In this document: piece by piece, positions 23,790 through 37,220 of the stretch | Numbering within the stretch: position 1 is the stretch's first letter | Layout of the letters: each line of letters opens with the position of its first letter | Virus record (IMG/VR): IMGVR_UViG_3300045988_112927 | Span: 56,519-120,518 of that record | DNA: 64,000 bases | DNA from: a virus | Strand: one strand, 5' to 3' | Notes under the pieces: generated by a model | Databases searched by the model: none | Seen by the model: the letters and a program-made list of their open reading frames with translations, nothing else | What the model was told of the DNA's origin: nothing | Made by a program: the position numbers and the translations under genes

Positions 23790-23818
23790 AAGTACAAAAG
23801 AGATAGAGGTGATAAAAA

Positions 23819-23989: not shown

Positions 23990-24006
23990 CTCGACCTTTT
24001 AAGTTT

Positions 24007-24042: not shown

Positions 24043-24055
24043 GTCAAGAGGTAAT

Positions 24056-24125
24056 CTGCACAAATTTATTTGTGAAATTTTGTACAATTTGCCTATTGTA
24101 ATTTATCCCGAAATGGGTTATACTT
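24056..24125 (+). promoter_or_regulatory. class-2 operator/promoter copy
   Basis: CTGCACAAATTT...TTTTGTACAA then CCTATTGTAATTTATCCCGAAATGGGTTATACT. Confidence 0.45.
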
Positions 24126-24156
24126 ATTACAGAGATAAGGAAAGGGGGTCACCGCT

Positions 24157-24309
24157 ATGATGGTAACCTTAGATTTTAGCAAGAATTACCGAGAGCAGAC
24201 AGAAGAAGTTAAAAAGGCAATTAGTGAACATGATTTCTATGAGGTGGCTAATTTGGTAGGTTTTAAGGTAGTATTAAAAAAAATGAGAAAAAATAAGAAA
24301 AAGGGTTGA
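24157..24309 (+). CDS. small hypothetical protein (50 aa)
   Basis: MMVTLDFSKNYREQTEEVKK...; stop TGA lies inside next promoter -35. Confidence 0.35.
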   Translation: MMVTLDFSKNYREQTEEVKKAISEHDFYEVANLVGFKVVLKKMRKNKKKG

Positions 24310-24334
24310 CAAACACCATCGACTATGGTATTAT
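24306..24334 (+). promoter_or_regulatory. sigma70-type promoter
   Basis: GGGTTGACA-17-TATTAT. Confidence 0.5.
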
Positions 24335-24368
24335 AATTATAGAAAAAGGAAAGGAAAGGTAATAAATT

Positions 24369-24836
24369 ATGAGAGAAGAAAAGGTTTTAGTATTTGACAT
24401 GGACGGAACAATCGCAAATCTGTATGGAGTAGTTGGTTGGTTGGAAGATTTAAGAAATAGCAATCCAAGACCATACATTGAAGCAGAACCTATGTATGAC
24501 ATGGAAGTTCTTGTAGCACTTCTGTTAGCACTTAAAAACTTTGGTTGGAAGATTGTAGTAACAAGTTGGTTAGCAAAAGAAAGCACAAAAGACTATGATG
24601 AATTGGTTAGAGTAGCAAAAAGAGATTGGTTGAAAAAGTACAATTTCCCTGCTGATGAAATCCACCTTGTAAAGTATGGCACTACAAAAGCAAATTGCAC
24701 AAGAAAACATGGTGGTTTCCAAGTGTTAGTAGATGACAATGAGCAAGTGAGAAAAGGTTGGCACTTAGGCAACACAATCAACGCAAATGAAAACATTCTT
24801 GAACAGTTGTTAAATCTGTTAGTGGCTGAAATGTAA
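24369..24836 (+). CDS. HAD-superfamily phosphatase, 5'(3')-deoxyribonucleotidase-like
   Basis: VLVFDMDGTIANL (DxDGT motif I) and VLVDDN (motif IV-like). Confidence 0.55.
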   Translation: MREEKVLVFDMDGTIANLYGVVGWLEDLRNSNPRPYIEAEPMYDMEVLVALLLALKNFGWKIVVTSWLAKESTKDYDELVRVAKRDWLKKYNFPADEIHLVKYGTTKANCTRKHGGFQVLVDDNEQVRKGWHLGNTINANENILEQLLNLLVAEM

Positions 24837-24894
24837 GCCACTAACAGAACGAAAGAAAAAGTTTGCGGATTGGTAAAAAATTGGAAAAAAGCGC

Positions 24895-24923
24895 TTGACA
24901 AAATATTTGCCCCATGCTATAAT
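24895..24923 (+). promoter_or_regulatory. sigma70-type promoter
   Basis: TTGACA-17-TGCTATAAT. Confidence 0.55.
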
Positions 24924-24953
24924 TAAACTATCAAAAGGAAAGGAAATAAAACA

Positions 24954-25256
24954 ATGCAAGCGACAGGAATTATCAGAAGAATTGATGATTTAGGAAGAAT
25001 TGTTATTCCCAGAGAAATCAGAAGACAGTTAAAAATTGGAGAGAGTGACCCACTTGAAATTTTCCTCTCAAGAGATGGAGAAATCATCCTCAAGCCTTAC
25101 AGGACAGAATACACTTTGCGAAAGGCTGATGATTGGGAAGAATTGGAAGACCCACAAGGAAAAGTGGTTGCACAGGGTCATAGACTTAGCGTAGAGGAAA
25201 TTCTTTCTGCTGTTGGTGTAGAATTTCAGATAGAAGAAATTGAAGAGGAGGACTAA
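24954..25256 (+). CDS. AbrB/SpoVT-type DNA-binding regulator (second copy)
   Basis: IRRIDDLGRIVIPREIRRQLKIGESDPLEIF classic swapped-hairpin N-domain. Confidence 0.65.
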   Translation: MQATGIIRRIDDLGRIVIPREIRRQLKIGESDPLEIFLSRDGEIILKPYRTEYTLRKADDWEELEDPQGKVVAQGHRLSVEEILSAVGVEFQIEEIEEED

Positions 25257-25259
25257 AAA

Positions 25260-25463
25260 ATGGCAATGGATTCAGTTGGAGCAATTATCAATCACAGTAT
25301 GACAATTAGCAACATGATTGCGGTAGAACAAGAGCGAGAGCGCAAACACGCAATAAATCCAAGGTGCAAGCCCGCAAATTTTGGTGGAGTTGCTTCTTAC
25401 ATTGAGTATGCGACAGGCGTTAAATGTTCTGCAGAAGATGTAAAAAAAGTGTTGACAAAGTAG
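25260..25463 (+). CDS. small hypothetical protein
   Basis: ORF track 67 aa, coupled to upstream gene. Confidence 0.35.
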   Translation: MAMDSVGAIINHSMTISNMIAVEQERERKHAINPRCKPANFGGVASYIEYATGVKCSAEDVKKVLTK

Positions 25464-25480
25464 CCAATCAGTGCTATAAT
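25452..25480 (+). promoter_or_regulatory. sigma70-type promoter
   Basis: TTGACA-17-TGCTATAAT. Confidence 0.55.
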
Positions 25481-25486
25481 TAAAAC

Positions 25487-25655
25487 ATAGAAAGGAAGTG
25501 AAAGAAATGAGAAGTCCTCCGAGGTAAAACCCACAAGATAGGAAATTGCGGAAACGCACTCGCCAAAGGTCATGCACATTAGGGCGGGATAGCAATGCGA
25601 CCGAGTGCTCTCTGAAGTGCGTAGGAGAGTTGAGCCAGTTGGGACACTGGCTCTT
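25487..25655 (+). ncRNA. candidate ~165-nt non-coding RNA (promoter to terminator, only a 6-codon ORF)
   Basis: Bounded by consensus promoter and GAGCCAGT..ACTGGCTC-TTTTT terminator; GC-richer than surroundings. Confidence 0.3.
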
Positions 25656-25658
25656 TTT

Positions 25659-25697
25659 ATTTGGCGGCGCGCTGACGTTCCTGGCGCGCCGCATTTT
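25659..25697 (+). terminator. GC-rich hairpin terminator (family member)
   Basis: GGCGGCGCGCTGACGTTCCTGGCGCGCCGC then ATTTT. Confidence 0.45.
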
Positions 25698-25708
25698 ACG
25701 AGAGTAGC

Positions 25709-25785
25709 AATCTGCACAATTTCTGCTTTAAAAATTTGGTTATTTTACCTATTGTATTTTATCCCAAAATGGGGTATTATAATAG
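25709..25785 (+). promoter_or_regulatory. class-2 operator/promoter copy
   Basis: TCTGCACAATTTCTG... then CCTATTGTATTTTATCCCAAAATGGGGTATTATAAT. Confidence 0.45.
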
Positions 25786-25873
25786 TGTCAAGAGGGAAGC
25801 GGTTGCTGAAAGGAACTACTCAAAAACCTTAAAGGGTGCAACCTAGGGAGTCAAAAAAAGTTTCAAAAAACTC

Positions 25874-25902
25874 TTGACAACCTCATACGAAAGTGATATA
25901 AT
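25874..25902 (+). promoter_or_regulatory. sigma70-type promoter
   Basis: TTGACA-17-TGATATAAT. Confidence 0.55.
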
Positions 25903-25936
25903 TAAATCAAGATAAAGGAAAGGAAAGGTAAATAAA

Positions 25937-26092
25937 ATGAGAATTGAGAGAAGTGACGACAAGGCTTATCCATACACAATTAAAGGTGGTTGGGGCGACA
26001 AGGTTTATTGTACAGAAGATGGTCTGAAAGAGCTTAAAAGAGAAATCAATAAAATTCTTAAAGAAAATAAAGAAAAAGGGTTGACAAAATAA
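25937..26092 (+). CDS. small hypothetical protein (51 aa)
   Basis: MRIERSDDKAYPYTIKGGWGDKVYC...; stop overlaps next -35. Confidence 0.35.
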   Translation: MRIERSDDKAYPYTIKGGWGDKVYCTEDGLKELKREINKILKENKEKGLTK

Positions 26093-26109
26093 TCCAAACG
26101 TGGTATTAT
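26081..26109 (+). promoter_or_regulatory. sigma70-type promoter
   Basis: GGGTTGACA-17-TATTAT. Confidence 0.5.
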
Positions 26110-26143
26110 AATAATAGAAAGAGGAAAGGAAAGGTACAAAACA

Positions 26144-26599
26144 ATGACAAAGGAAAGAATGATTAAATTATACAGACAGTTCAGCGGAGCAGATAGTTAC
26201 ATCGTAGGTTTTACTTACAAGCACTTATTATACATGATTAAAGTTAAAGAGTTAATGCCAAGACAAATGCAAGTTCTTCACTCTTCACACAAGAATGGTT
26301 ATCAGCCAAAGCTTCAGTTGGTACTTAATAATCACTTAAAAGAACAGTTCATTCGCAAAGGTGCTATTTGCTTAGGTAGTGAAGATTTGATTATGAACGG
26401 CGAATACAACAAGGGTGTTGAGTTTGAAAGACTTGTTTGCGAAATGAATGGTATCGAGTTCAGAGGTAAAGACAGTGTTGGCTTTTGGGTTGGCGGTGAT
26501 GTTGAAATTGAGGGCGAACAGATTCAAGTAAAATTCCAGGGTGCGCAGATTGTAGCAGAAAAAACTTTGGTAAGATTGCAAAAGGGCTTAGTTGGTTAA
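26144..26599 (+). CDS. hypothetical protein
   Basis: ORF track 151 aa. Confidence 0.4.
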   Translation: MTKERMIKLYRQFSGADSYIVGFTYKHLLYMIKVKELMPRQMQVLHSSHKNGYQPKLQLVLNNHLKEQFIRKGAICLGSEDLIMNGEYNKGVEFERLVCEMNGIEFRGKDSVGFWVGGDVEIEGEQIQVKFQGAQIVAEKTLVRLQKGLVG

Positions 26600-26610
26600 G
26601 CCCTTTTAGA
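26583..26610 (+). terminator. intrinsic terminator
   Basis: GGGCTTAGTTGGTTAAGCCC then TTTT. Confidence 0.45.
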
Positions 26611-26622
26611 AAAGAGGTAAAA

Positions 26623-26757
26623 TGTTAAAAGTTGAGCCAATAGCAAACATTAGTTCTTTAGGTTATAAATTGCCGAAAGACCAAAAGAAGAAGAAAAAGA
26701 AAAAAGAAAAGAAAGAAGATTTTGCGGTAGTCTATAAAAAAGTTATTGACAAATAAA
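26623..26757 (+). CDS. small Lys-rich protein (44 aa)
   Basis: MLKVEPIANISSLGYKLPKDQKKKKKKKEKKED... Confidence 0.25.
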
Positions 26758-26774
26758 TAAAAAAATGTTATAAT
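26746..26774 (+). promoter_or_regulatory. sigma70-type promoter
   Basis: TTGACA-17-TGTTATAAT. Confidence 0.5.
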
Positions 26775-26811
26775 ATTTATATAAGATAAAAGAAAGGAAA
26801 GGTAAAACAGT

Positions 26812-26937
26812 ATGACAAAAGTATCCTATGTAGTAACTTATCCAAATAAGACAAAAGAGATTGTTAAAACTCTCGCAGAGGCTCAAGCTGCAAAGCAAAA
26901 GGGCGCAACTTACAAAGTGGTTTACTCTAAACTCTAA
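26812..26937 (+). CDS. small hypothetical protein (41 aa)
   Basis: MTKVSYVVTYPNKTKEIVKTLAEAQAAKQKG... Confidence 0.3.
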   Translation: MTKVSYVVTYPNKTKEIVKTLAEAQAAKQKGATYKVVYSKL

Positions 26938-26973
26938 AGGGGTCGCCCCCTTAAGGGGGCAGAAAGGACGATT

Positions 26974-27270
26974 ATGAAATATTATAGATTTACAGCAGAT
27001 ACACCTTATTGCGGAACTGAAAACACAACTTACATAAAGTTTGAAATAGAACCAACAGAAAGTGAACTTGCAGACATTGCGGCAGACTTAAACGCAAGCA
27101 ACGCAGAATCCTATGAATACATGGTTTTTGGTTGGGACGCCGACCCTGTCGCAGATGGCGAAATGACAGAAGAAGAGTATGAGGAAGAAATGGAATCTTA
27201 CAGAGAAGATTGCACTTGCTTTTATGATGAAGTTTCAGAAGAGGAATATTTTGAAAATGGGGGAGAGTAA
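26974..27270 (+). CDS. hypothetical acidic protein
   Basis: ORF track 98 aa, Glu/Asp-rich. Confidence 0.4.
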   Translation: MKYYRFTADTPYCGTENTTYIKFEIEPTESELADIAADLNASNAESYEYMVFGWDADPVADGEMTEEEYEEEMESYREDCTCFYDEVSEEEYFENGGE

Positions 27271-27327
27271 TCTCTCCCATTTTTAATTTGCGCCGGGCGC
27301 GCACGATTCTCGCGCCCGGTTTTTCGG
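27258..27327 (+). terminator. tandem terminators (GGGGGAGAG..CTCTCCC-TTTTT, then GC-rich hairpin family member)
   Basis: Two consecutive hairpins each followed by T-run. Confidence 0.45.
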
Positions 27328-27376
27328 GATAACCTTTCATTATAACATTTTTTCGGCGAATTGTCAACTGGCAGAT

Positions 27377-27444
27377 TGCACAAAGATTTTCCTGTAATTT
27401 TGTGCAATCTGCCAGTTGTATTTTGGGCGCAGATAGGTTATAAT
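27377..27444 (+). promoter_or_regulatory. class-2 operator/promoter, best palindrome GGCAGATTGCACAA-N15-TTGTGCAATCTGCC
   Basis: 14-bp perfect inverted arms, then GTTGTATTTTGGGCGCAGATAGGTTATAAT. Confidence 0.55.
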
Positions 27445-27515
27445 AATAATGTCAAGAGGGAGTGGGAGCAAACCTTTGGGAACTCTCCTCAACAAAAAAA
27501 AGTTGGAAAAACCTC

Positions 27516-27720
27516 TTGACAAATAAAAAAAATTATGATATAATAAATATAGAAAGTGAGGGAAAAAGAAATACCAAAAAATTTCTAAAAAAAATTAAAA
27601 AAAATGGTTGACAAAATAAAAAAAATATGATATAATAAATATGTAAGATAAAGAAAGAACTTAAAAATCTTTCAAAAAATAAAAAAAGTGCTTGACAAAC
27701 AAAGCACAAGATGTTATAAT
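27516..27720 (+). promoter_or_regulatory. three stacked consensus sigma70 promoters (27516, 27608, 27692)
   Basis: Each TTGACA-17-T(G)ATATAAT/TGTTATAAT with A-tract UP elements. Confidence 0.55.
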
Positions 27721-27800
27721 AAGAATGTAAAGAGGAAAACCTCTTACAGATAAAAAAAATAGGGTTGCGACCAAGCGCAATAAAAGAAAGGATTGATACT

Positions 27801-28157
27801 ATGGAAAACAAGAAGATGACTAAGAGAGAAATGTTTGAGCAGATTAAGGCTACCTATCCGCTGACCGCAGAGGAAGTTGCTTTCATTGACCATGAGCTTG
27901 AGCTTTTGGCAAAGAAGAACTCCGCTGACAAGAAGCCTACCAAGGTACAGGTAGAGAATGAAGCTATCAAGGCTGACATTGTTGGTGGTATGGAAGCTGG
28001 TAAGCAGTACACCATTACTGACCTTATCAAGTCTGTTCCTGCTATCGCAGAGTTGAGCAACCAGAGAGTTTCCGCACTGGTTCGCCAGTTGGTAGCTGAT
28101 GGCTCTGTTGTAAGGGTTGAGGAAAAGCGCAAGGCTTACTTCTCCCTTGCGGAGTAG
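27801..28157 (+). CDS. abundant-early-protein paralog A1 (putative winged-helix DNA-binding)
   Basis: 118 aa; ~80% identical to 32046..32399; elevated GC and G/C-ending codons; ATG 27801 after AAAGAAAGGA. Confidence 0.5.
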   Translation: MENKKMTKREMFEQIKATYPLTAEEVAFIDHELELLAKKNSADKKPTKVQVENEAIKADIVGGMEAGKQYTITDLIKSVPAIAELSNQRVSALVRQLVADGSVVRVEEKRKAYFSLAE

Positions 28158-28163
28158 TCACAA

Positions 28164-28200
28164 GGGGGGCGCAAAGCCCCCCACTACCAAAAAAATTTTT
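28164..28200 (+). terminator. intrinsic terminator
   Basis: GGGGGGCGCAAAGCCCCCC hairpin. Confidence 0.4.
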
Positions 28201-28210
28201 TAGAAAAGTG

Positions 28211-28239
28211 TTGACAAGATAACAAAGGTGTGCTATACT
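28211..28239 (+). promoter_or_regulatory. sigma70-type promoter
   Basis: TTGACA-17-TGCTATACT. Confidence 0.5.
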
Positions 28240-28265
28240 TGTAATAGAAAGGGGGCAGAAAGCCT

Positions 28266-28643
28266 ATGACAAAAACAGAAAGAGAAAAGCTGATTGCCAA
28301 GCACATGGCTACTCTTGATATTACAAGAGAAGAAGCAGAACAGTTGATTGCTGATGATGAAGCCATTGATAAGGGCGCAAAGTTGTTTGAACTTGACAAA
28401 GAAGCGGAAAAGGCAAGCAAAAAGGCAAGAGCCATTGGCACAAAGACCACAACCGCAACCGCCAAGAAGCCAAGAGAGAAAAAGGCTGATAATGACAAAG
28501 CGCAGATTATGGAAGAAATCAGAGAAGCAATTTCCAACCTCAATGGAGTGAGTGACATTGATGTCACAAATGCGGAAAGAGAAATGGTGTTCTTCTGTAA
28601 TGGCAGAAAATTCAAGGTGGTACTGTCTGCGCCAAGAACCTAA
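28266..28643 (+). CDS. abundant-early-protein paralog B1 (Lys-rich linker)
   Basis: 125 aa; paralog of 32451..32816. Confidence 0.45.
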   Translation: MTKTEREKLIAKHMATLDITREEAEQLIADDEAIDKGAKLFELDKEAEKASKKARAIGTKTTTATAKKPREKKADNDKAQIMEEIREAISNLNGVSDIDVTNAEREMVFFCNGRKFKVVLSAPRT

Positions 28644-28660
28644 AGAAAGAAAAAGTCAAG

Positions 28661-28694
28661 GGGGCGAATCTACCAAAGATTCGCCCCTTTTATT
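28661..28694 (+). terminator. intrinsic terminator
   Basis: GGGGCGAATC-TACCAAA-GATTCGCCCC then TTTTATT. Confidence 0.55.
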
Positions 28695-28738
28695 GTGCAA
28701 TTTTACTACTTGACATTTTCAGTTCAAAGTGGTAAAAT

Positions 28739-28775
28739 GGCCGCCCGCGCACATACGCGCGGGCCGGAATTTTTG
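28739..28775 (+). terminator. GC-rich hairpin (family member) preceded by its own TTGACA-17-TAAAAT promoter
   Basis: GGCCGCCCGCGCACATACGCGCGGGCCGG then AATTTTT; promoter at ~28711-28739. Confidence 0.4.
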
Positions 28776-28787
28776 TAAATACCCAAC

Positions 28788-28856
28788 TTGCACAAATTTG
28801 CTGGCGAAAATTTGTGCAAAATTACTACTTGTATTTTTCCCGAAAAGTGATATAAT
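28788..28856 (+). promoter_or_regulatory. class-2 operator/promoter copy
   Basis: TTGCACAAATTTG...AATTTGTGCAAA then CTTGTATTTTTCCCGAAAAGTGATATAAT. Confidence 0.5.
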
Positions 28857-28880
28857 AAATAATGTAAGGAGGGCGATACA

Positions 28881-29051
28881 ATGGACGCTTTTAAGAGAGA
28901 AACAGTAGTTGGTTACACTTGTTATGACATTAACGCAAAATGTGTTCACAATAAACACAGACACAAAGACGGGCAAATGATTAAAAGAACCGCAAGAAGA
29001 AAATTCAAAGAAAAGTTAAAAAAAATGCTTGACAACCAAGAGGAAATGTAG
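28881..29051 (+). CDS. small basic protein (56 aa)
   Basis: MDAFKRETVVGYTCYDINAKCVHNKHRHKDGQ... Confidence 0.35.
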   Translation: MDAFKRETVVGYTCYDINAKCVHNKHRHKDGQMIKRTARRKFKEKLKKMLDNQEEM

Positions 29052-29057
29052 TATAAT
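29029..29057 (+). promoter_or_regulatory. sigma70-type promoter overlapping gene end
   Basis: TTGACA-17-TATAAT. Confidence 0.5.
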
Positions 29058-29090
29058 AAAATCAACAAAAGGAAAGGTTAGGTAATAAAA

Positions 29091-29570
29091 ATGGATTGGA
29101 ATTTATTAGTAGTATTTATCATCTTAAACATTGTAAATGTAGTAATGCAGACAGTAAAGAGTATCGCAACAGTAAAGTGCGGTAAGGGTATAGCCGCCCT
29201 TGTAAATGCGGTAACATTCGCACTCTACACAGTAGTAACAGTTTATATGCTTTGTGAACTTCCTCTACTTTGGAAAGCAGTCATTGTTGGCTTGTGTAAC
29301 CTTGTTGGTGTGTATGTTGTAAAGTTAGTTGAGGAAAAAGCACGCAAAGACAAACTTTGGAAAGTTGAAATGACAGTGCGTGACTATCAGACACAGAAAC
29401 TTGCAAATGCCCTTGATGATTTGAGTATCCCTTATAACTACATAGAAAATGTAGGCAAGTATTCAATCTTCAATATCTATTGTGCAACACAGAAACAGAG
29501 TGCCACAGTAAAAGGCATTGGTGCAGAGTGTAAAGCAAAATACTTTGTAACAGAAACAAAAACTTTATAA
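29091..29570 (+). CDS. membrane protein
   Basis: 159 aa, 3-4 predicted TM helices at N-terminus. Confidence 0.45.
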   Translation: MDWNLLVVFIILNIVNVVMQTVKSIATVKCGKGIAALVNAVTFALYTVVTVYMLCELPLLWKAVIVGLCNLVGVYVVKLVEEKARKDKLWKVEMTVRDYQTQKLANALDDLSIPYNYIENVGKYSIFNIYCATQKQSATVKGIGAECKAKYFVTETKTL

Positions 29571-29577
29571 AAGGGGG

Positions 29578-29606
29578 TTGACAACCCCCACCCCCTATGC
29601 TATAAT
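29578..29606 (+). promoter_or_regulatory. promoter with -35 in hairpin GGGGGTTGACAACCCCC
   Basis: TTGACA-17-TGCTATAAT. Confidence 0.45.
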
Positions 29607-29631
29607 AAGTATAGAAAGAGAGGTAATGACA

Positions 29632-29883
29632 ATGGCAACATTAAAGATTTATAAATGCTATGATGAAAATGGGAAAGAGGACTTAACCCTTGAGGTTTGG
29701 AACTCAAGTACCAAATACCCAGACGCAAAGTTCTACTTTTCAGATTTCAATTTGAGTGAGTGGGTAGACCAGGAGCACCAAGTTTTTCAGTGGTTGCTTG
29801 AATGTGCAAGCAAAATGAGATTTCCAAGCACCGCAAAACAGATTGCGGAATTGGCTTTCAAAGACTATGTAACATGGGAGTAA
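29632..29883 (+). CDS. hypothetical protein
   Basis: Start at ATG 29632 (MATLKIY) 8 nt after AGAGAGG; track start lies in promoter. Confidence 0.4.
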   Translation: MATLKIYKCYDENGKEDLTLEVWNSSTKYPDAKFYFSDFNLSEWVDQEHQVFQWLLECASKMRFPSTAKQIAELAFKDYVTWE

Positions 29884-29888
29884 AAAAT

Positions 29889-29951
29889 GGGCTAGGGAAA
29901 CCTAGCCCTTTCCTTTTGTCTTGGGCTGGCCGCGCTCGGTCACCGCGGCCA
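29889..29951 (+). terminator. tandem terminators (GGGCTAGGG-AAA-CCTAGCCC; GC-rich family hairpin CTGGCCGCG..CGCGGCCAG)
   Basis: Two hairpins with T-rich tails. Confidence 0.45.
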
Positions 29952-30008
29952 GAATTTACCATTATACCACCGGCCGCACTTTTTGTCAAGAAAAACGTGC
30001 GAAAAAAA

Positions 30009-30080
30009 TTGCACAAACTTTTTCCCGAAATTTTGTGCAATTTGTCTATTGTAATTTGCGGCGGGCGGTGGTATACTAAT
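30009..30080 (+). promoter_or_regulatory. class-2 operator/promoter copy
   Basis: TTGCACAAACTTTTTCCCGAAATTTTGTGCAA then CTATTGTAATTTGCGGCGGGCGGTGGTATACT. Confidence 0.5.
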
Positions 30081-30139
30081 TATAGTTGATGAGGGAGAGA
30101 GAAAACCTCATAAAAAAATAAAAAAAGTTGAAAAAACTG

Positions 30140-30168
30140 TTGACAAGTGGCAGACAGTATGCTATAAT
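30140..30168 (+). promoter_or_regulatory. sigma70-type promoter
   Basis: TTGACA-17-TGCTATAAT. Confidence 0.55.
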
Positions 30169-30199
30169 AAAAACAGTTAAAGGAAAGGAACTGAAAGAA

Positions 30200-30931
30200 A
30201 TGAGTAGAAGAAAAGAAATGTTTTTAGTAATTGACACAGAAACTTGCAACACTATTGAGCAACCACTTCCTTATGATATTGGTTATGCAATTTGTGACAG
30301 AAAAGGCAACATTGTTTTGGAAAGAAGTTTTGTTGTTGCTGAAATGTTTTTAGACCACAAAGATGTTATGAAAAGTGCTTATTTTGCTAAAAAAATTCCT
30401 CACTACTGGGATGATTTGAAAAAAGGCACAAGAGAGTTAAAGTCCATTTTCAACATTAGAAAACAGATTTTAGCTGATATGAAACAGTATAAAGTTAAAA
30501 AAGTTGGTGCTTATAATATGGGTTTTGACAAGAGAGCATTAAATAATGTGATTAGATACTGTTCACATTCTTTCATCAGATGGTTTTTCCCTTTTGGTAC
30601 AGAGTTTTTCTGTATTTGGAATATGGCTTGCCAAACACTTTTGAACACTACAACCTATGTAAAATTTGCCCTTGCTAATGGGTTAGAAAGTGACAAGGGA
30701 AACATTCTAACAAGTGCAGAAAGTTGTTACAGATTTCTGACAAATTCAGTTGATTTTGAAGAAAGTCACACAGGTTTGGAAGATGTTAGAATTGAAGTTG
30801 AAATTATGGCAAAATGTTTTGCAACTCATAAAAAAATGAATAAAAGAGTAAATTCTTCTTGTTGGAGATTGCCACAGAGAAAAAGAAAGGAGTTAGACTT
30901 GCGTGAAACATTCCGCACCGCCACAGTATAG
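30200..30931 (+). CDS. DnaQ-like DEDDh 3'-5' exonuclease
   Basis: LVIDTETCN (Exo I), YNMGFDKRAL (Exo II), HTGLEDV (Exo III); start ATG 30200. Confidence 0.6.
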   Translation: MSRRKEMFLVIDTETCNTIEQPLPYDIGYAICDRKGNIVLERSFVVAEMFLDHKDVMKSAYFAKKIPHYWDDLKKGTRELKSIFNIRKQILADMKQYKVKKVGAYNMGFDKRALNNVIRYCSHSFIRWFFPFGTEFFCIWNMACQTLLNTTTYVKFALANGLESDKGNILTSAESCYRFLTNSVDFEESHTGLEDVRIEVEIMAKCFATHKKMNKRVNSSCWRLPQRKRKELDLRETFRTATV

Positions 30932-30975
30932 GCGGAGCGGAAAACCGCACGAACAAAAAATTTTTTCAAAAAAGC

Positions 30976-31005
30976 GTTGACAAATAATTCCAAGAGTGAT
31001 ACAAT
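30976..31005 (+). promoter_or_regulatory. sigma70-type promoter
   Basis: TTGACA-18-TACAAT. Confidence 0.45.
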
Positions 31006-31036
31006 AATTATAGAAAGAGAAAAGGAAGTGATATAA

Positions 31037-31225
31037 ATGGAAGATTACAGTTGTCCTAAATGCGGGAGTGAGGACATTTACACCTTTGATGATAAGGACT
31101 GTGAAATCAACTTTGAAGATGAAACATTTTATGTGAGAAGTGCAATGAGTTGTAATTGTTGCGGGCATGATTTTATAATGGTAGCAAGTGGAAGATTAAC
31201 AGATATTAAGTTTGAAAGGAGATAA
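31037..31225 (+). CDS. zinc-ribbon small protein
   Basis: CPKCGSED...CNCCGHDF. Confidence 0.4.
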   Translation: MEDYSCPKCGSEDIYTFDDKDCEINFEDETFYVRSAMSCNCCGHDFIMVASGRLTDIKFERR

Positions 31226-31228
31226 AAA

Positions 31229-31549
31229 ATGTTTCAGTTTGGCGAAAAAGTGATTATTAAAGACCCCACCTTAAAAAGCCACAATAGAAAAGGGTTGTAT
31301 GTTGGCGAGAGTAAGACCAAGAGCGGACAAGTAAAAGTTTATCTTGAAGAACCTATCAAGAGCGGAAAAAATACCATTGCTTGTGTCACTATTGGGGCGG
31401 ATAAGGTTTTCAACTATGTAGAAGATGAAAAAGAAGCAATGCAGGCTCGCCTTGATTTCCTTTACCGCAGAGCGGATGAACTGGAAACAGAGTTAGTTGA
31501 CGCAAGAGAAGAAATTTTTCAGATTGAGAAAAAGTTAATGGGCAGATAA
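31229..31549 (+). CDS. hypothetical protein
   Basis: ORF track 106 aa. Confidence 0.4.
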   Translation: MFQFGEKVIIKDPTLKSHNRKGLYVGESKTKSGQVKVYLEEPIKSGKNTIACVTIGADKVFNYVEDEKEAMQARLDFLYRRADELETELVDAREEIFQIEKKLMGR

Positions 31550-31600
31550 GTCTGCCCATTATTTGCGCCCAGCGCGCCGCGCACGTACGATGCGCGGCGA
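31541..31600 (+). terminator. tandem terminators (GGGCAGA-TAAGT-CTGCCC; GC-rich family hairpin)
   Basis: Hairpins followed by T-runs. Confidence 0.45.
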
Positions 31601-31659
31601 ATTTTCCATTATACCACCCCGCCGAGATTTTGTCAAGCAAAAGTTGACCGGCAATTTGC

Positions 31660-31736
31660 ACAAAATTTTTCCCAAAATCTTGTGCAGTTTGACAGTTGTA
31701 TTTTTGGGGGAAATGGGTTATAATAAATAATGTCAA
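31660..31736 (+). promoter_or_regulatory. class-2 operator/promoter copy
   Basis: TTGCACAAAATTTTTCCCAAAATCTTGTGCAG then GTTGTATTTTTGGGGGAAATGGGTTATAAT. Confidence 0.5.
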
Positions 31737-31793
31737 AGGGAGATAGGCAATCAGCCTTAAAGAAAAAAAGTTTTAAAAAATTCAAATTCCCTA

Positions 31794-31997
31794 TTGACAA
31801 ATAAAAAAAGTTATGATATAATAAATATGTAAAGAAAAGGAAAGAGTCTTAAATGACAAGTAGGTAAAAGCCTCTGGTTGGAAAATCCTTGCAAGGTAAC
31901 ACAAGCGAAACCCTATTGCAGACAATTTCAGAAGTTTGAAAATCTTCAAAAAAAATTCAAAAAACCTATTGACAACTGAATAAAGATATGTTATAAT
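31794..31997 (+). promoter_or_regulatory. stacked consensus sigma70 promoters (31794 and 31969) upstream of paralog A2
   Basis: TTGACA-17-TGATATAAT and TTGACA-17-TGTTATAAT. Confidence 0.5.
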
Positions 31998-32045
31998 AAC
32001 AATGTAAACAAAAACAAATCACATTTGAAAGGATTGGTACAGATT

Positions 32046-32399
32046 ATGGAAAAGAAAATGACTAAGAGAGAAATGTTTGAACAGATTAAGAGAAACTATG
32101 ACTTAACCCAGGCTGAGGTTGACTTCATTGACCATGAGTTAGAGTTGCTTGCAAAGAAAAATTCTGCTGATAAGAAACCTACTAAGGTTCAGGTGGAAAA
32201 TGAGGGTATTAAGGCTGAAATCCTTGAGGGTATGGAAGTAGGTAAGGCTTACACCATTACTGATTTGATTAAGGAAGTGCCTGCTATTGCTGAATTAAGC
32301 AATCAGAGAGTGTCTGCCCTTGTTAGACAGTTAGTTGCTGATGGTTCAGTAACAAGAACAGAGGAAAAGAGAAAGGCATACTTCACAAAAGTAGCCTAA
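32046..32399 (+). CDS. abundant-early-protein paralog A2
   Basis: MEKKMTKREMFEQIK... ~80% identical to 27801..28157. Confidence 0.5.
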   Translation: MEKKMTKREMFEQIKRNYDLTQAEVDFIDHELELLAKKNSADKKPTKVQVENEGIKAEILEGMEVGKAYTITDLIKEVPAIAELSNQRVSALVRQLVADGSVTRTEEKRKAYFTKVA

Positions 32400-32450
32400 T
32401 CTTGATTGGGTGGGGGAAACCCCACCCCCCACAAAAGGGGGTAGGTAGAA

Positions 32451-32816
32451 TTGACAGATAAAATCAAAAATTTAATGGAAAAGTTAGATATTACAGAGGA
32501 AGAAGCTCTTCAGTTGGTGGAAGATGATAAAGCCATAGATAGGGGCGAAAAACTCTTTGAATTGTCTGATGAACAGAAGAAAAACGCGAAAAAGGCTACA
32601 AATTTGGGAGAAAAGACCAAAAAAACCACTAAAAAAGCCCCAAATCGCAAGAAAAATGACACAAAAGCCACAATTATCAGTGAATTGTCTGAATTTTTGG
32701 CTCAAAATGAGCAAATTGTAGCTGAAAATGTGGAAATTGTCAACGCAGAACGCCAAATTTCCTTCAAAATTGGCGAAAATTCATACAGTTTGACGCTTAC
32801 TCAACACAGGAAGTAG
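32451..32816 (+). CDS. abundant-early-protein paralog B2 (probable TTG start)
   Basis: Aligns with 28266..28643 from N-terminus only if TTG 32451 used; alternative ATG 32475. Confidence 0.4.
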   Translation: MTDKIKNLMEKLDITEEEALQLVEDDKAIDRGEKLFELSDEQKKNAKKATNLGEKTKKTTKKAPNRKKNDTKATIISELSEFLAQNEQIVAENVEIVNAERQISFKIGENSYSLTLTQHRK

Positions 32817-32819
32817 GCA

Positions 32820-32850
32820 AACCGCCCAAAAAGGGCGGTATTTTTTTGTT
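32820..32850 (+). terminator. intrinsic terminator
   Basis: ACCGCCC-AAAAA-GGGCGGT then ATTTTTTTG. Confidence 0.55.
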
Positions 32851-32861
32851 CATTTTTACTA

Positions 32862-32920
32862 TTGACACCCAGCCGCAAATGTGGTATAATTGGCGGCCCG
32901 TTTTCGCTTGCGCTGGGCCG
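32862..32920 (+). promoter_or_regulatory. promoter TTGACA-17-TGGTATAAT reading directly into a GC-rich family hairpin
   Basis: Hairpin CGGCCCGTTTTCGCTTGCGCTGGGCCG immediately downstream of -10. Confidence 0.4.
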
Positions 32921-32941
32921 AACTTCCGTTCTGTATAATTA

Positions 32942-33009
32942 GCACAAAAAATCTCGGCAAAACTTGTGCAAAATTACCTATTGACTATTTTCCCAAAATG
33001 GTGTATACT
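32942..33009 (+). promoter_or_regulatory. class-2 operator/promoter copy
   Basis: GCACAAAAAATCTCGGCAAAACTTGTGCAAA then CCTATTGACTATTTTCCCAAAATGGTGTATACT. Confidence 0.5.
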
Positions 33010-33039
33010 TTAATTACAGTAAAGGAAAGGAATGAGATT

Positions 33040-33261
33040 ATGTTAGAAAAGGTAAAAGATTTCTATGAAAGAGAATACATCAGCACTGAAAGATACTTAA
33101 AAGGTAAATGGTGCGGTGACAAAAGAATGGTTGTAGAAAAAACTATCTCTTACTTTTTAGGCATTGCACAGTTTGTACAGACTATTGGTGTCAAGTATGA
33201 GGACATTGATGTTCTTTACAACATTTACAAAAAAAAGTTACAGAAACTACTTGACAACTAA
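33040..33261 (+). CDS. small hypothetical protein (73 aa)
   Basis: ATG 33040 (MLEKVKDFYEREY); track start 32890 spans regulatory region. Confidence 0.4.
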   Translation: MLEKVKDFYEREYISTERYLKGKWCGDKRMVVEKTISYFLGIAQFVQTIGVKYEDIDVLYNIYKKKLQKLLDN

Positions 33262-33279
33262 ATAAAAAAATGATATAAT
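33251..33279 (+). promoter_or_regulatory. sigma70-type promoter overlapping gene end
   Basis: TTGACA-17-TGATATAAT. Confidence 0.5.
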
Positions 33280-33313
33280 AAATATAACAAAAGGAAAGGA
33301 ATGGTAAAAAATT

Positions 33314-33586
33314 ATGATGAAAATGAGTGAGTTAGCAAATTTGTTAGTAAACGCAATCGCAGAGGTAGGCGATAGAGAGATTGGCTTTGTGGAAGAGGGA
33401 ACTGGCGAGGTTCGCTACTTGGTTGGTCTGTCAATCAGTCAGAGTGATGCAATGCTTGAGCATGTTTCCTATGGAGAAATGCAGATGATTAAACAGTTGG
33501 ATAGGCTGGGTGTTATGATGGATGAAGCTGGAGATGTTTCTCTGCCTGACCTTTTCAATCTTATGGGGGATTTGCTTGATGAATAA
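33314..33586 (+). CDS. hypothetical protein
   Basis: ORF track 90 aa. Confidence 0.4.
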   Translation: MMKMSELANLLVNAIAEVGDREIGFVEEGTGEVRYLVGLSISQSDAMLEHVSYGEMQMIKQLDRLGVMMDEAGDVSLPDLFNLMGDLLDE

Positions 33587-33794
33587 TGAAGATTTGGTTT
33601 TAAGAATGAACATTCTTGGGGGCATGAACTCTTTTGTTCTTGCCCTTGGGGATGAAAATATTTTAGAGGGTTGGATTGTTTATGGTGTTCAAGATGAAGC
33701 CACAGAGGATGATTTGAGAGCCATTGCGGAAGATGATGATTGCTTTGCAGATGTCTGTGAGTATTTCGCAAAAATTTGTAGAAAGAGAGGATAA
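33579..33794 (+). CDS. hypothetical acidic protein (71 aa)
   Basis: ATG 33579 overlapping upstream stop (ATGAATAATG). Confidence 0.35.
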   Translation: MNNEDLVLRMNILGGMNSFVLALGDENILEGWIVYGVQDEATEDDLRAIAEDDDCFADVCEYFAKICRKRG

Positions 33795-33799
33795 AAAAA

Positions 33800-34066
33800 T
33801 TGTTTTATTACATAATAGCTTGTGTGGTAATGGTTGCACTTGTATACATTAAAGTGTATGCGGAAATGGTGGAATTTAAGAAGATTTTCCCCAATTTAAG
33901 GTTCAAAAAGCAAGGTGTAGCAAAAATTTTTATAGACACTGTAAAGGTGCTTGTACTCTTTGCAATTCCAATAATTAATTTGATACTTTTCATTGCTTTG
34001 TTTTTTGTCCTTGATGAAAATGAATACAGAAAAGCAATAATGAAGAATTGTGAAAGCCTCCTCTAA
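33800..34066 (+). CDS. small two-TM membrane protein
   Basis: 88 aa, two hydrophobic helices. Confidence 0.4.
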   Translation: MFYYIIACVVMVALVYIKVYAEMVEFKKIFPNLRFKKQGVAKIFIDTVKVLVLFAIPIINLILFIALFFVLDENEYRKAIMKNCESLL

Positions 34067-34078
34067 TGGGGGCTTTTT
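34050..34078 (+). terminator. intrinsic terminator
   Basis: AGCCTCC-TCTAAT-GGGGGCT then TTTTCC. Confidence 0.4.
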
Positions 34079-34079
34079 C

Positions 34080-34460
34080 CATGCCCATTTTCGCCGGCCG
34101 ACAATGGTCGATTATGCCGGAATTTTACAAAAAAGTCAACTATGCAATTTTCACAAACAAAATACCGCCCTTTTGTGCAATCTGCACAATTCCTGAAAAC
34201 CCCTTTGCGCCCCGGGCGGTCCTGGACCCCATATGCGATTTAATGCTATTGCCGGCCGCAGGCGACTGGCCAGGCCGGGATTCGCCGATCGGTCCCCATA
34301 TGGAAAATTTTTTTGTTGAAAGCATATGTCCCTTCAGGCCATATGCTTTCCCGGAATTGTACTGACCCCCTATCACTTTTAAATGCTCAGTGCATATGCG
34401 ATTGCCTCTCCAGTAAACAAAAATTAGAAGTCGCGAATGCGACTTCATATGCAAACAGTA
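34080..34460. other. GC-rich non-coding island dense in palindromes (6x CATATG, CCGATCGG, GCCGGCCG, CCCGGG) with a head-to-head TTTGTGCAA/TGCACAA site
   Basis: Seen directly; composition contrasts with flanking AT-rich DNA. Confidence 0.4.
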
Positions 34461-34461
34461 C

Positions 34462-34557
34462 TTGACAAATTCACTTAAAATATGGTATAATTACAAAAAA
34501 AGCTATTCTTACCGATCGGGAAACCGGGGACCGCAAATTTGATTTTATAAAAAAAAT
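34462..34557 (+). promoter_or_regulatory. two stacked promoters (TTGACA-18-TATAAT at 34462; class-3 TTGATT...TGATATAAT at 34529)
   Basis: Hexamers seen; CCGATCGG palindrome between them. Confidence 0.5.
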
Positions 34558-34605
34558 ATGATATAATATATACATAAGATAAGAAAAGAAAGAGAGGACA
34601 TAGCT

Positions 34606-35058
34606 ATGTATAACTACGATGACATTCTTGCCAGATTGCGCAATGGTGAAGATGCCGAGGTTATTGCCCAGGAGATGGTAGATACTCTGAATAAGGCTAA
34701 CCGCGATTTTACTGATGAAAAGGAGAAGGCTGATAACCAGAAGCAGAAGAAAGTTGACGCCGCAAAGGCTATCTTGGATAGCATGATTGCTTATGTGCGC
34801 GAGTTCCACCCTGAGAATCCTTTGAACGAGGTTCTCGCACAGGCTAACACCGAGAACATGGAGGATTTAGCAAACGCCGTTGATGCAGCAGTTGAGGAGT
34901 TCGGTATACTTACAGCTATTGCTAAGTCTATTGGACCTGACCTTGAGAAGCTGATTAATGTCCGCGAGATTGCGAGACCAAGAGCCGGAGCGATTAGACT
35001 TGCTGCCGGGAATACAAATCCTATTGATGCATTTCTGAAAGCCAACGGATTAGCCTAA
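34606..35058 (+). CDS. hypothetical protein, GC-rich codon usage (highly expressed class)
   Basis: 150 aa; GAG/AAG/GCC/CTG codon bias shared with 27801, 32046 and 46141 genes. Confidence 0.45.
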   Translation: MYNYDDILARLRNGEDAEVIAQEMVDTLNKANRDFTDEKEKADNQKQKKVDAAKAILDSMIAYVREFHPENPLNEVLAQANTENMEDLANAVDAAVEEFGILTAIAKSIGPDLEKLINVREIARPRAGAIRLAAGNTNPIDAFLKANGLA

Positions 35059-35299: not shown

Positions 35300-35332
35300 A
35301 AATTTCAAAAGAAAAAGGAGTCATTAGACTCC
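35300..35332 (-). terminator. terminator hairpin at 3' end of minus-strand gene
   Basis: GGAGTC-ATTA-GACTCC with U-run on minus strand; overlaps stop codon. Confidence 0.4.
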
Positions 35333-35698
35333 TATCTCCTTAACCTCATAATCCATCGGTTCAACTAAAACTGCGGCAAGAGCATCTTTAATAAACTTAT
35401 CAATATATCCCTCATCTACATTCACACTCTCATCTACCGGCTTAGCTTCTACTCTCTTACCTCTTTCAGGCTTCTTCTTCTCTTCCTTAAAGTACACATA
35501 TCTATCTCTCTTCGGATACTCATCAACAGACATATGTTCCAAATCAGCATGCCCAACGACCTCATAATTTAAAACTATTTCTCCGGTCTCTTTAATAACA
35601 TACATTGTATTCGAAATACAGTCGTTGCGTTTGATTTCATTTTTTGAAACGACAATTACATCGTATCCTTTATAACTTCCAATTCGATTTCCTCTCAT
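35324..35698 (-). CDS. hypothetical protein
   Basis: ORF track 124 aa, last gene of reversed island. Confidence 0.4.
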   Translation of the reverse strand: MRGNRIGSYKGYDVIVVSKNEIKRNDCISNTMYVIKETGEIVLNYEVVGHADLEHMSVDEYPKRDRYVYFKEEKKKPERGKRVEAKPVDESVNVDEGYIDKFIKDALAAVLVEPMDYEVKEIGV

Positions 35699-35762
35699 TT
35701 CCTTTCAGAGCCTCCATTTTTCTTTCTTTTTATTTTTATTATACCATTTTTTTAGTAAAAAA

Positions 35763-35939
35763 TCAAATGAGATTTTCTAATTCCCTCTTTATATATGATT
35801 CAAAATCATCTTTTTTAGTTATAAAATAAAGACTTTCATCTTCTTTATCTAAATATATACTAACCTCTTCAATAGACTCTTTCTTTTTCTCCATAAGTCT
35901 ATTAAAATCTTCTAATGTACCTTTTCTAAATTTAATCAT
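35763..35939 (-). CDS. small hypothetical protein (58 aa)
   Basis: Internal start MIKFRKG with RBS AAAGGAGG; longer track ORF extends into repeat array. Confidence 0.35.
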   Translation of the reverse strand: MIKFRKGTLEDFNRLMEKKKESIEEVSIYLDKEDESLYFITKKDDFESYIKRELENLI

Positions 35940-35989
35940 AATGCGGCCTCCTTTCGCGCGGCTGAACGCCCCGAAGGGGCGTAATATTT

Positions 35990-36240
35990 TTGCAAAAATG
36001 CTGTTGCAATTTTGCAAAAATAAAGAGCAAAATTTGCAAATTTGTTGCAAATTGTAAGATATAAGATAGATTGTTGCAAAACAAACAAAATTTGTAAATT
36101 GCAAAAACGATTGTTGCAAATTTGCAAAAACTATTGTAAAAACTATTGCAAACATTTACTTTTTTGCAAAATTTTTGCAAAAAGACCGGACGAACAAAAA
36201 CAATTTTTGCAAAATTTGCAAAAACTATTGCAAACATTTA
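35990..36240. repeat. array of ~15 palindromic TTGCAA hexamers (plus TTGTAA variants) in A/T context; iteron-like
   Basis: Counted by eye: TTTTGCAAAA / ATTGCAAAC units, two 23-bp sub-repeats GCAAAAACTATTGCAAACATTTA. Confidence 0.6.
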
Positions 36241-36627
36241 AAATTCAAAATTCTCATTTTTCCTATTCTTCCAACCTTCATTATGGTCAACGGCGCTTTT
36301 CGATATTCCGAGCGTTTTAGCGATTTCCGCACTTGAATATCCCTCTCGCGCAAGTTTATAAATCTCAGTATCGTTAGTCTTTTTCTTTCTTCCGCCAACT
36401 TTACTCATTTCAACTTTTTTCTGATAAGCTTCTTTACTTGCGTCAATTCTACCTTTAAGCATATTTACAAAAGCTTGAACTATAGGGTCATCTAAATGCT
36501 GAAGTTCCATTTCCGTTCCATATCTCACGAACTCAGCAATAATCTTATCTTGTTGTTCAATGGGCAATTCTCTAATACTATCTAACCAGTCTTGATGAAC
36601 AACAAATGTAACATTACTATCTGCCAT
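36238..36627 (-). CDS. HTH DNA-binding protein (sigma-r4/resolvase-like HTH), candidate iteron-binding/replication organizer
   Basis: C-terminal EIYKLAREGYSSAEIAKTLGISKSAV helix-turn-helix; gene abuts TTGCAA array. Confidence 0.4.
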   Translation of the reverse strand: MADSNVTFVVHQDWLDSIRELPIEQQDKIIAEFVRYGTEMELQHLDDPIVQAFVNMLKGRIDASKEAYQKKVEMSKVGGRKKKTNDTEIYKLAREGYSSAEIAKTLGISKSAVDHNEGWKNRKNENFEF

Positions 36628-36814
36628 TTGCGTCCTCCTTTCTGGTTAAAAGAGAATCAAAAGCTTTTAAAAACTCCTCCGTCTCTTCATATACCCAACA
36701 ATTAAATTTAGGATTCTTTGGATTCTTCATTTCCGTCACATGCGCGAACCCTAATGATTGCAGCTTAATATGAATCTGGAGAGAATAAATAATTTTATAC
36801 TTTGCATTTGACAT
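36617..36814 (-). CDS. small hypothetical protein
   Basis: ORF track 65 aa, coupled to downstream HTH gene. Confidence 0.35.
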   Translation of the reverse strand: MSNAKYKIIYSLQIHIKLQSLGFAHVTEMKNPKNPKFNCWVYEETEEFLKAFDSLLTRKEDANGR

Positions 36815-36828
36815 TTTGAACTCTCCTT

Positions 36829-36978
36829 TTACTCCTCTTCTCTATTATGTAAGAGGTCTTTTATTGCTTTACGAATAACTTGCGACATGCTTAAATCATT
36901 CTCTTGGGCATATTGCGCGACAGCTTCTTTTTCGTCTTTAGATAATCGTAAAGACAATGTAGTCATTTCTTCAGCCAT
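36829..36978 (-). CDS. ribbon-helix-helix (CopG/Arc-like) regulator (49 aa)
   Basis: MAEEMTTLSLRLSKDEKEAVAQYAQENDLSMSQVIRKAIKDLL; RBS AAAGGAGG. Confidence 0.5.
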   Translation of the reverse strand: MAEEMTTLSLRLSKDEKEAVAQYAQENDLSMSQVIRKAIKDLLHNREEE

Positions 36979-37065
36979 ATAAATATGACCTCCTTTCTAA
37001 GTCTAATATATATAAAAGTTTTTTGTAATACTTTGTTCTACTCTGTCCTACAAAATTTATCCTTT

Positions 37066-37095
37066 ATTGATTTATAATAAAAAAAATGATATAAT
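37066..37095 (+). promoter_or_regulatory. class-3 promoter (TTGATT-18-TGATATAAT)
   Basis: Member of conserved 45-bp promoter repeat family. Confidence 0.5.
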
Positions 37096-37149
37096 ATTTA
37101 TATAAAGGAAAAAGGATACGGTTTCGTCACGGGTTCGTCGTTTTCCGTA

Positions 37150-37205
37150 AATCCTTGCAAAAACCATTTTTGCAAAACTTGCAACTTTTTTGCAAATTTA
37201 ACAAA
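37150..37205. repeat. four additional TTGCAA sites flanking the reversed island on its right side
   Basis: CTTGCAAAAACC, TTTTGCAAAAC, CTTGCAAC, TTTTGCAAATTT. Confidence 0.5.
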
Positions 37206-37220
37206 AGGAGATGATACTAT

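Follow-up and report, generated by a model that had tools for sequence, protein, structure and literature searches.

A conserved TTGCAA array and its predicted DUF6291-HTH binding protein form a candidate origin-type module in large Lachnospiraceae-associated phages

In the P1 replicon, a small set of sites (the incC iterons) comes before the initiator operon with repA, and a larger array (the incA iterons) comes after it. A small ribbon-helix-helix (RHH) autorepressor ahead of the initiator gene is a common replicon layout, as in CopG-RepB and ORF56-ORF904. Phage replisome organisers carry their origin repeats inside the gene (TIGR01714 description). The SPP1 protein gp38 binds direct repeats beside an AT-rich DNA unwinding element (DUE) in its own gene, and a second origin lies elsewhere in the genome (PMC6316719). 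The Staphylococcus aureus pathogenicity islands (SaPIs) have 6–12 penta- or hexanucleotide iterons that are matched in specificity to Rep; the hexanucleotide iterons lie directly downstream of rep, around an AT-rich centre with at least two opposed iterons per side (PMC9371898). Here we analyzed a 64,000-nucleotide stretch of phage DNA (hereafter the window; positions 56,519–120,518 of IMG/VR record IMGVR_UViG_3300045988_112927), in which an array of the palindromic hexamer TTGCAA lies next to the minus-strand gene of a 129-amino acid (aa) protein with an N-terminal DUF6291 domain and a C-terminal helix-turn-helix (HTH). The phage bearing this module, which together with its neighbouring minus-strand genes we call the island, is ~190 kb and Lachnospiraceae-associated.

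The array was kept at the same position in all of the ~45 relatives fetched (34–96% protein identity, mostly contigs of 180–197 kb). The first-pass annotation of the window, made from the sequence alone, had read the array as an origin, a partition site, or an operator or decoy, and had named its loss in close relatives as grounds for refutation; no relative fetched has lost it. The sequence between the sites has diverged and their number and spacing vary, with the hexamers themselves retained. In the first 13 relatives (63–91% identity), 6–25 copies of TTGCAA begin a few bases past the stop codon of the HTH gene, and across 38 loci reaching down to 46% identity, 5–23 copies lie within 420 bp in all but one, which is of the Y-type described below. 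The distance from the HTH stop codon to the beginning of the array is at most ~30 bp in the ~40 loci of the D/N-type (46–100% identity).

The repeated hexamer changes with residue 114 of the protein, which lies in the recognition helix (S109-K-S-A-V-D114-H in the window). With D or N at this position (~40 loci, including L174), the array consists of 5–23 copies of TTGCAA. With Y (L168, which is the same as L028, and L173, L175, L176, and L179), it consists of 8–13 copies of TTGTAA/TTACAA, and with Q (L181), of 13 copies of TTGTAT/ATACAA and 7 of TTGTAC/GTACAA; TTGCAA is entirely missing from the Y- and Q-type arrays. The Y-type protein of L168 is 56% identical to that of the D-type L174 and only 27–38% identical to those of the other Y-types. 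Because L168 is nearer to a D-type protein than to the other members of its own class, these comparisons indicate that the switch from D to Y arose at least two independent times, with the same DNA change each time.

Since a residue of the recognition helix covaries with the repeated hexamer, the HTH protein is the predicted binder of the array. We consider it very probable that the 129-aa protein physically binds these sites, and on the same comparison the binder is almost certainly this protein and not the RHH protein encoded in the same operon, which is further set apart from the array because it has a conserved operator of its own. An array for a host factor is unlikely because the hexamer covaries with a phage protein; boxes for CodY, ComK, Spo0A, and DnaA were rejected by inspection, the conserved GC-containing core of the site covarying with the phage protein. 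TTGCAA was also rejected as a general promoter element of the phage, because its frequency elsewhere in the window does not exceed background and the early promoters carry TTGACA. Taken together, the comparative evidence for a conserved module of a protein and its predicted target is strong.

As the first-pass annotation had counted, the array holds 15 exact copies of TTGCAA and the other flank of the island holds four more, where ~0.1 would be expected; the two 23-bp sub-repeats and the hairpin that it had described beside the array were recovered as well (Table 1). The window contains 56 copies in total compared with 36.9 expected from shuffling, and the 37 copies outside these two clusters correspond to that background level. 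The background amounts to 0.15 copies per 250 bp, the base composition of the array itself predicts 0.075 copies, and no other 300-bp stretch of the window contained three or more. The extended site follows roughly the consensus wwT-TTGCAA-AAwT, start-to-start spacing peaks at 8–9 and 12 bp, and the site flanks are alike on either side of the array centre. The 4-site cluster was restricted to relatives with at least 84% HTH identity (L006–L009) and was missing from more distant ones.

The core of the array is invariant in the array alignment and present in 14 lineages, and the more distant lineages have different centres that are likewise TA-rich, so that a TA-rich centre is found in every lineage. 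The least stable 20-mer inside the array (36049–36068) overlaps this core. The hexamer of the Y-type arrays is asymmetric, and their core reads TTGTAA-T-TTGTAA, followed by 16–23 bp of TA-rich DNA and then TTACAA-A-TTACAA, which places two sites on each side in opposite orientations. A GC-rich hairpin or inverted repeat occupies the position equivalent to that of the window hairpin in most relatives inspected, with a different sequence in each. RNA folding of the array and of the 5′ untranslated region (UTR) of the rightward operon was unremarkable beyond the pairing expected of palindromic repeats, and a structured RNA was set aside on this ground. Two open reading frames (ORFs) of 130 and 101 aa that are listed across the array are probably not real genes.

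The 129-aa protein matches the Pfam family DUF6291 (PF19808) over residues 7–82 (49.4 bits against a cut-off of 27.2, E 5.4e-13) and also matches HTH_7. Its basic arm, GRKKK, is invariant in the protein alignment, and its C-terminal HTH is three-helix. In a PDB profile search, residues 49–112 aligned with residues 111–175 of gamma-delta resolvase, a span that takes in the end of helix E along with the GRKRK minor-groove arm and the HTH. The likeness to gamma-delta/Tn3 resolvase and to the Hin DNA-binding domain comprises the E-helix end, a GR(K/P)(K/R) arm, and the three-helix HTH, and it extends to the sites of gamma-delta resolvase and Hin, which also have a short major-groove core with A/T flanks. 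Unlike the serine recombinases, the 129-aa protein has no catalytic domain with an active-site serine, its N terminus being DUF6291, and a serine recombinase was ruled out, as only the helix E end, the arm, and the HTH align. A member of the sigma-70 family was rejected as well: region 2 is missing and the region-4-like HTH match is sub-threshold (24.8 bits against a cut-off of 25.7). No significant fold match was obtained for the N-terminal part of an AF2 (AlphaFold2) model with a pLDDT of 73, and the NCBIfam search of the island proteins returned HTH and RHH matches only, all of them sub-threshold.

The resolvase-type HTH unit was also seen in 6–13 tandem copies in long proteins of 580–1557 aa (P0201, P0202, P0206, P0220, and P0228), and a solved "CAP REPEAT" chain (8vd6) gave the same kind of match.

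Our leading, though tentative, reading takes the array for the binding-site set of the 129-aa protein within an iteron-type replication origin or replication-control locus, which, on the homologies and analogies described here, falls a little short of an even chance. The 129-aa family shares homology with the N-terminal module of proteins whose C terminus is a DnaD/DnaB_2 domain (hhalign 97.5%, E 9e-12). In these fused homologues, the C-terminal domain was recognized by Pfam (E 7e-14) and by NCBIfam as DnaD_dom (E 1.4e-13); DnaB_2 was found in P0256, P0271–P0273, P0292, P0355, P0358, and P0359, and some others end in Phg_2220_C. The six loci examined for longer DUF6291 proteins all belong to smaller phages or prophages and are early, replication, or recombination modules there. 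One such gene lies just past CI/Cro and another directly before a DnaB-type helicase, and others have SSB, RecT, ERF, RusA, NinB, and DUF1064 as neighbours. At four loci, short-period DNA repeats stand immediately 3′ of the DUF6291(-HTH) coding part, where they encode a low-complexity linker in a position equivalent to that of the window array: a 21-bp unit three times in L038, ATGTAGATG-type repeats in L039 and L040, and ~15 TAATTA-type hexamer units in L182. Two features expected of iteron origins were found at the array itself: the repeats adjoin the gene of their predicted binder, and, by computation, protein and repeats appear matched in specificity across the D/N, Y, and Q variants.

The layout recalls the SaPI origins in that the iterons come just past the ORF of the predicted binder, the AT-rich centre is flanked by opposed sites (here in the Y-type core), and protein and sites are matched in specificity. 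In contrast, Rep of the SaPIs, a self-loading helicase, reads its iterons through a C-terminal winged helix, whereas the protein here has 129 aa, no ATPase, and a resolvase-type HTH, and its array has up to 25 sites at irregular spacing. The order of an N-terminal origin-binding module followed by repeats and an AT-rich stretch is shared with the replisome organisers (SPP1 gp38 with oriL/oriR, those of lactococcal phages, and lambda O), whose typical DnaD/DnaB_2 domain is carried by homologues of the 129-aa protein; the smaller second set of sites resembles SPP1, which also has one elsewhere in its genome. Unlike in these organisers, the gene here stops before the repeats, the array is non-coding, the protein has no DnaD-like C-terminal domain, and there is no helicase or loader gene next to it. 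With 4 sites, then the operon and 15–23 sites, the window and its closest relatives resemble P1. In contrast to P1, most lineages have no upstream set, the protein bears no relation to the Rep_3/RepA winged-helix initiators, and no plasmid homologue was found for the window protein.

If the array is an origin, the early leftward operon would yield the RHH protein, the 65-aa protein, and the HTH protein, and the RHH protein would autoregulate this operon through its own operator. One HTH would read each hexamer in the major groove, with residue 114 touching the two central base pairs and the GRKKK arm placed in the flanking A/T minor groove. Many copies of the HTH protein could then cover the two sets of hexamers around the TA-rich centre and distort or melt it, and the DUF6291 domain may recruit replication proteins.

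Several observations weigh against an origin. The 129-aa protein contains no DnaD, DnaB_2, helicase, primase, or ATPase domain by Pfam or NCBIfam, and therefore none of the C-terminal DnaD/DnaB_2 type that marks a DnaD-type replisome organiser; a means of recruiting a helicase or its loader was recognized neither in this protein nor in the other island proteins. The ~40 neighbouring ORFs scanned with Pfam and PHROG contained no dedicated replication family, and the sole replication-related match, to a DNA-polymerase exonuclease subunit (ORF 30128–30931), was weak. The GC skew does not switch at the array: its cumulative minimum lies at ~17–18 kb and its sign is the same on both sides, although the skew tracks the coding strand and is a weak test of an origin where transcription dominates it. 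The array centre is not exceptionally unstable compared with nearby promoters or the surrounding 2 kb. Some of the DnaD-fused relatives are without the HTH, which is therefore not essential to the replication role of that family. Finally, the core is promoter-like and the 4-site cluster lies in a 5′ UTR, both of which fit transcriptional control, as does the conservation of the 59-aa and 124-aa genes with the module. The first-pass annotation had proposed an origin with iterons and its organiser; the DnaD-family homology and the SaPI- or organiser-like layout sustain this, and the missing skew switch and helicase-recruiting domain do not.

The main alternative, possible though rather unlikely, is that the array serves as an operator, a roadblock, or a titration array. 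In that case the HTH protein would act early to regulate transcription: by coating the array it would control the embedded promoter and with it the 59-aa gene, and possibly also read-through out of its own operon. The 4-site cluster in the 5′ UTR would, in the closest relatives, block the rightward early operon, and the many sites would serve as a cis sink buffering the level of free regulator. The core does match the sigma-A promoter pattern (−35, 17 nt, −10) as TTGCAA-17-TACAAT aimed at the 59-aa gene, the 4-site cluster lies between the strong rightward promoter and the first start codon behind it, and the downstream 59-aa and 124-aa genes are conserved with the module. However, 6–25 sites over 170–360 bp far exceed the need of an operator, and their number turns over freely. 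In the Y-types, the would-be −10 reads TACAAA, lacks the key final T, and is merely an inverted hexamer site; because of this and of the opposite orientation of the sites there, the "−35" and "−10" of the window core are probably flanking binding sites as well. In addition, a strong promoter of its own serves the 124-aa gene, most lineages are without the 4-site cluster, and relatives of the family are located in replication modules. The absence of any other cluster in the 64 kb argues against global regulation over this stretch of the genome. The roles of origin and operator are not mutually exclusive, since initiators often control promoters in their neighbourhood.

A reading that we regard as doubtful takes the array for a counter of genome copies and not for an origin. 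The 15–25 sites would form a sink in cis to the gene of their own regulator, so that free regulator would build up only once the protein outruns the number of phage genomes. This timing would shut early operons nearby, with the 4-site roadblock in the 5′ UTR as one means, and the D/Y/Q code at residue 114 would keep the counters of co-infecting related phages separate.

A partition centromere (parC/tubC/parS-like), bound by the HTH or the RHH protein and segregating an episomal plasmid-prophage form, is very improbable. The two sets of short repeats around a promoter-like core recall R1 ParR/parC and the pSM19035 omega heptads, in which many short repeats that flank or overlap a promoter are bound cooperatively; an RHH gene is present in the operon, and ~190 kb is comparable to known clostridial phage-plasmids. 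In those partition systems, however, the binders are RHH proteins acting with a partition ATPase, whereas the covariation here points to the HTH protein, the RHH protein has a separate conserved operator, and no ParA/ParM/TubZ-type NTPase was recognized among the island proteins and neighbouring ORFs scanned. PLSDB contained no plasmid encoding a homologue of the 129-aa protein. The ParR-type RHH centromere that the first-pass annotation had offered as an alternative is thus not borne out. We give almost no credence to a packaging (pac) site read by a small-terminase-like HTH protein, for which weak HTH-level matches to Terminase_5 and small-terminase PHROGs (E 1e-3 to 2e-2) and the tendency of near-complete relatives' contigs to end 2–25 kb from the island can be cited, but against which stand a large terminase (TerL, 13603–15342) 21 kb off on the other strand, contig ends that fall on either side of the array and never on the array itself, an order of helical N terminus and C-terminal HTH that is the reverse of that in the SPP1/SF6 G1P small terminases, and relatives located in replication and not in packaging modules.

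The module appears to be built on an uncharacterised domain family as a variation on a known origin-type arrangement. It is widespread in uncultured gut phages of ~190 kb, some with TAG recoding, a family in which almost no genes have a recognized function, and the protein, its predicted DNA target, and a single specificity residue have all been deduced from sequence. DUF6291 thereby gains its first functional handle; the literature search returned nothing relevant on this domain or on TTGCAA repeats. The locus also offers a compact natural case of recognition-code switching, with D, Y, or Q set against the central base pairs. If it is an origin, the module would be a "split" replisome organiser, whose repeats would have left the gene and whose helicase-recruiting domain would have been lost or be supplied separately, and the candidate origin could be used for building replicons or for reading replication from metagenomic coverage.

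Table 1. Features of the array, the island, and the remainder of the window (window coordinates)
Feature	Position	Strand	Remark
27-nt inverted repeat, 93% complementary	17686–17780		arms 41 nt apart; at the switch from minus-strand structural to plus-strand early genes
Six near-consensus sigma-A promoters (gTTGACA-17-TGcTATAAT)	20074–22384	+	200–800 bp apart, a small ORF behind each
124-aa protein	35324–35698	−	own sigma-A-type promoter, 35766–35738
59-aa ORF	35763–35942	−	AGGAGG ribosome-binding site; directly past array and hairpin
GC-rich hairpin ACGCCCCGAAGGGGCGT	35966–35982		closes the array; T-run on + strand
Main array, 15 exact TTGCAA and 3 TTGTAA variants	35990–36233		first site 5 bp past the stop codon of the 129-aa gene
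Array core, TTGCAA-CAATCTATCTTATATCT-TACAAT	36051–36079	−	TA-rich centre between hexamer-type sites; best-conserved block
23-bp sub-repeat, two copies	36092–36137
25-nt copies, 96% identical	36134–36158 and 36216–36240
129-aa protein	36238–36627	−	DUF6291 N terminus, GRKKK arm, resolvase/Hin-type HTH; predicted array binder
65-aa protein	36617–36814	−	predicted fold beta-alpha-beta-beta-alpha
49-aa RHH protein (DUF6290/RHH_1; CopG/RelB-like)	36829–36978	−	first gene of the operon
Putative RHH operator, direct repeat GTAGGACA / GTAGAACA	37029–37051	−	~10 bp apart; on −35 and spacer of the leftward promoter
Strong sigma-A-type promoter (TTGATT-17-TGaTATAAT)	37067–37095	+	rightward operon, first gene at 37221
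Direct repeat ACGGGTTCGTC, two copies, in an imperfect inverted repeat (GGATACGG...CCGTAAATCC)	37118–37139		5′ UTR, between rightward promoter and 4-site cluster
Second cluster, 4 TTGCAA	37155–37195		5′ UTR, past the rightward promoter and before the first rightward gene
17 tRNA genes in two clusters	50618–63698		two adjacent radical-SAM-like ORFs between them, 55996–58879

As shown in Table 1, the block of minus-strand genes is as the first-pass annotation had described it for the 49-, 65-, 129-, and 124-aa ORFs, and the ORF that it had given as 58 aa has 59. The 49-aa RHH protein, which gives a weak match to ORF56, is the likely autorepressor of the operon. Its putative operator was detected by TRF as a period-10 repeat, and TGTAGGACAAAGTAnAACA is conserved over the promoter in all lineages aligned, as is the rightward promoter. 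Of the three products of the operon, the 65-aa protein is the best conserved; it gave a confident structure model with no informative match. The 59-aa ORF had no family match in Pfam, PHROG, or NCBIfam, and the 124-aa protein had no Pfam, PDB, or DnaD similarity; neither of these nor the 65-aa protein is DnaD-like. Even the distant Y-type clade keeps the 124-aa gene downstream of the array. In L019 (from ~3135 onward) and L028 (from ~3180 onward), the gene directly after the array resembles, by eye, a GIY-YIG-type homing endonuclease; because this gene stands in place of the 59-aa ORF, the cargo adjoining the array is variable among relatives.

We also searched IMG/VR in reverse for triple TTGCAA sites, and among the matches listed, most were chance hits or unrelated arrays. 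Unrelated contigs with non-coding TTGCAA arrays of their own (L095 1995–2150, L096 3938–4010, L153 2790–2890, and L058 5864–5990) contained, for example, ATGTTGCAA eight times or gcTTGCAAa[at]g repeats, and no DUF6291-HTH homologue was detected beside these four arrays in the stretches fetched.

In the window as a whole, the large terminase and structural-looking genes occupy the minus strand at 1–18 kb and are followed by the plus-strand early region. The series of sigma-A promoters there has the look of a classic early region transcribed by the host polymerase. The cumulative GC skew minimum coincides with the 27-nt inverted repeat and the strand switch. GC skew is ~+0.2 both to the left (19000–35000) and to the right (37000–64000) of the island, and over the same plus-strand coding intervals the AT skew drops from values of ~+0.12 to +0.24 on the left to values of ~0 to +0.09 on the right. 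An Rfam scan of the window matched tRNAs alone, and PADLOC gave no defence-system match. Cultured phages showed no DNA-level similarity to the window, and in a protein search of cultured phages and plasmids the sole match was a distant DUF6291 protein of Riemerella phages.

The relatives are metagenomic contigs of 180–201 kb, four of which were binned with Lachnospiraceae or Clostridia genomes, and one protein cluster of the module is present on 484 contigs, the largest of 201 kb. The island lies at most 24 kb from a contig end in 9 of 11 near-complete contigs (180–197 kb), and at most 8 kb in five; those checked include L002, L003, L007, L008, L013, L019, L020, L022, and L031. This proximity points to either a physical end of the genome or a recurrent break in assembly close to the early region. 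In several relatives, in-frame TAG codons occur in the HTH gene (L024, L029–L033, and L037) or at 4630–4863 of L012; they align mostly with Q, E, or K of the window protein, so TAG appears to be a sense codon in members of this phage family.

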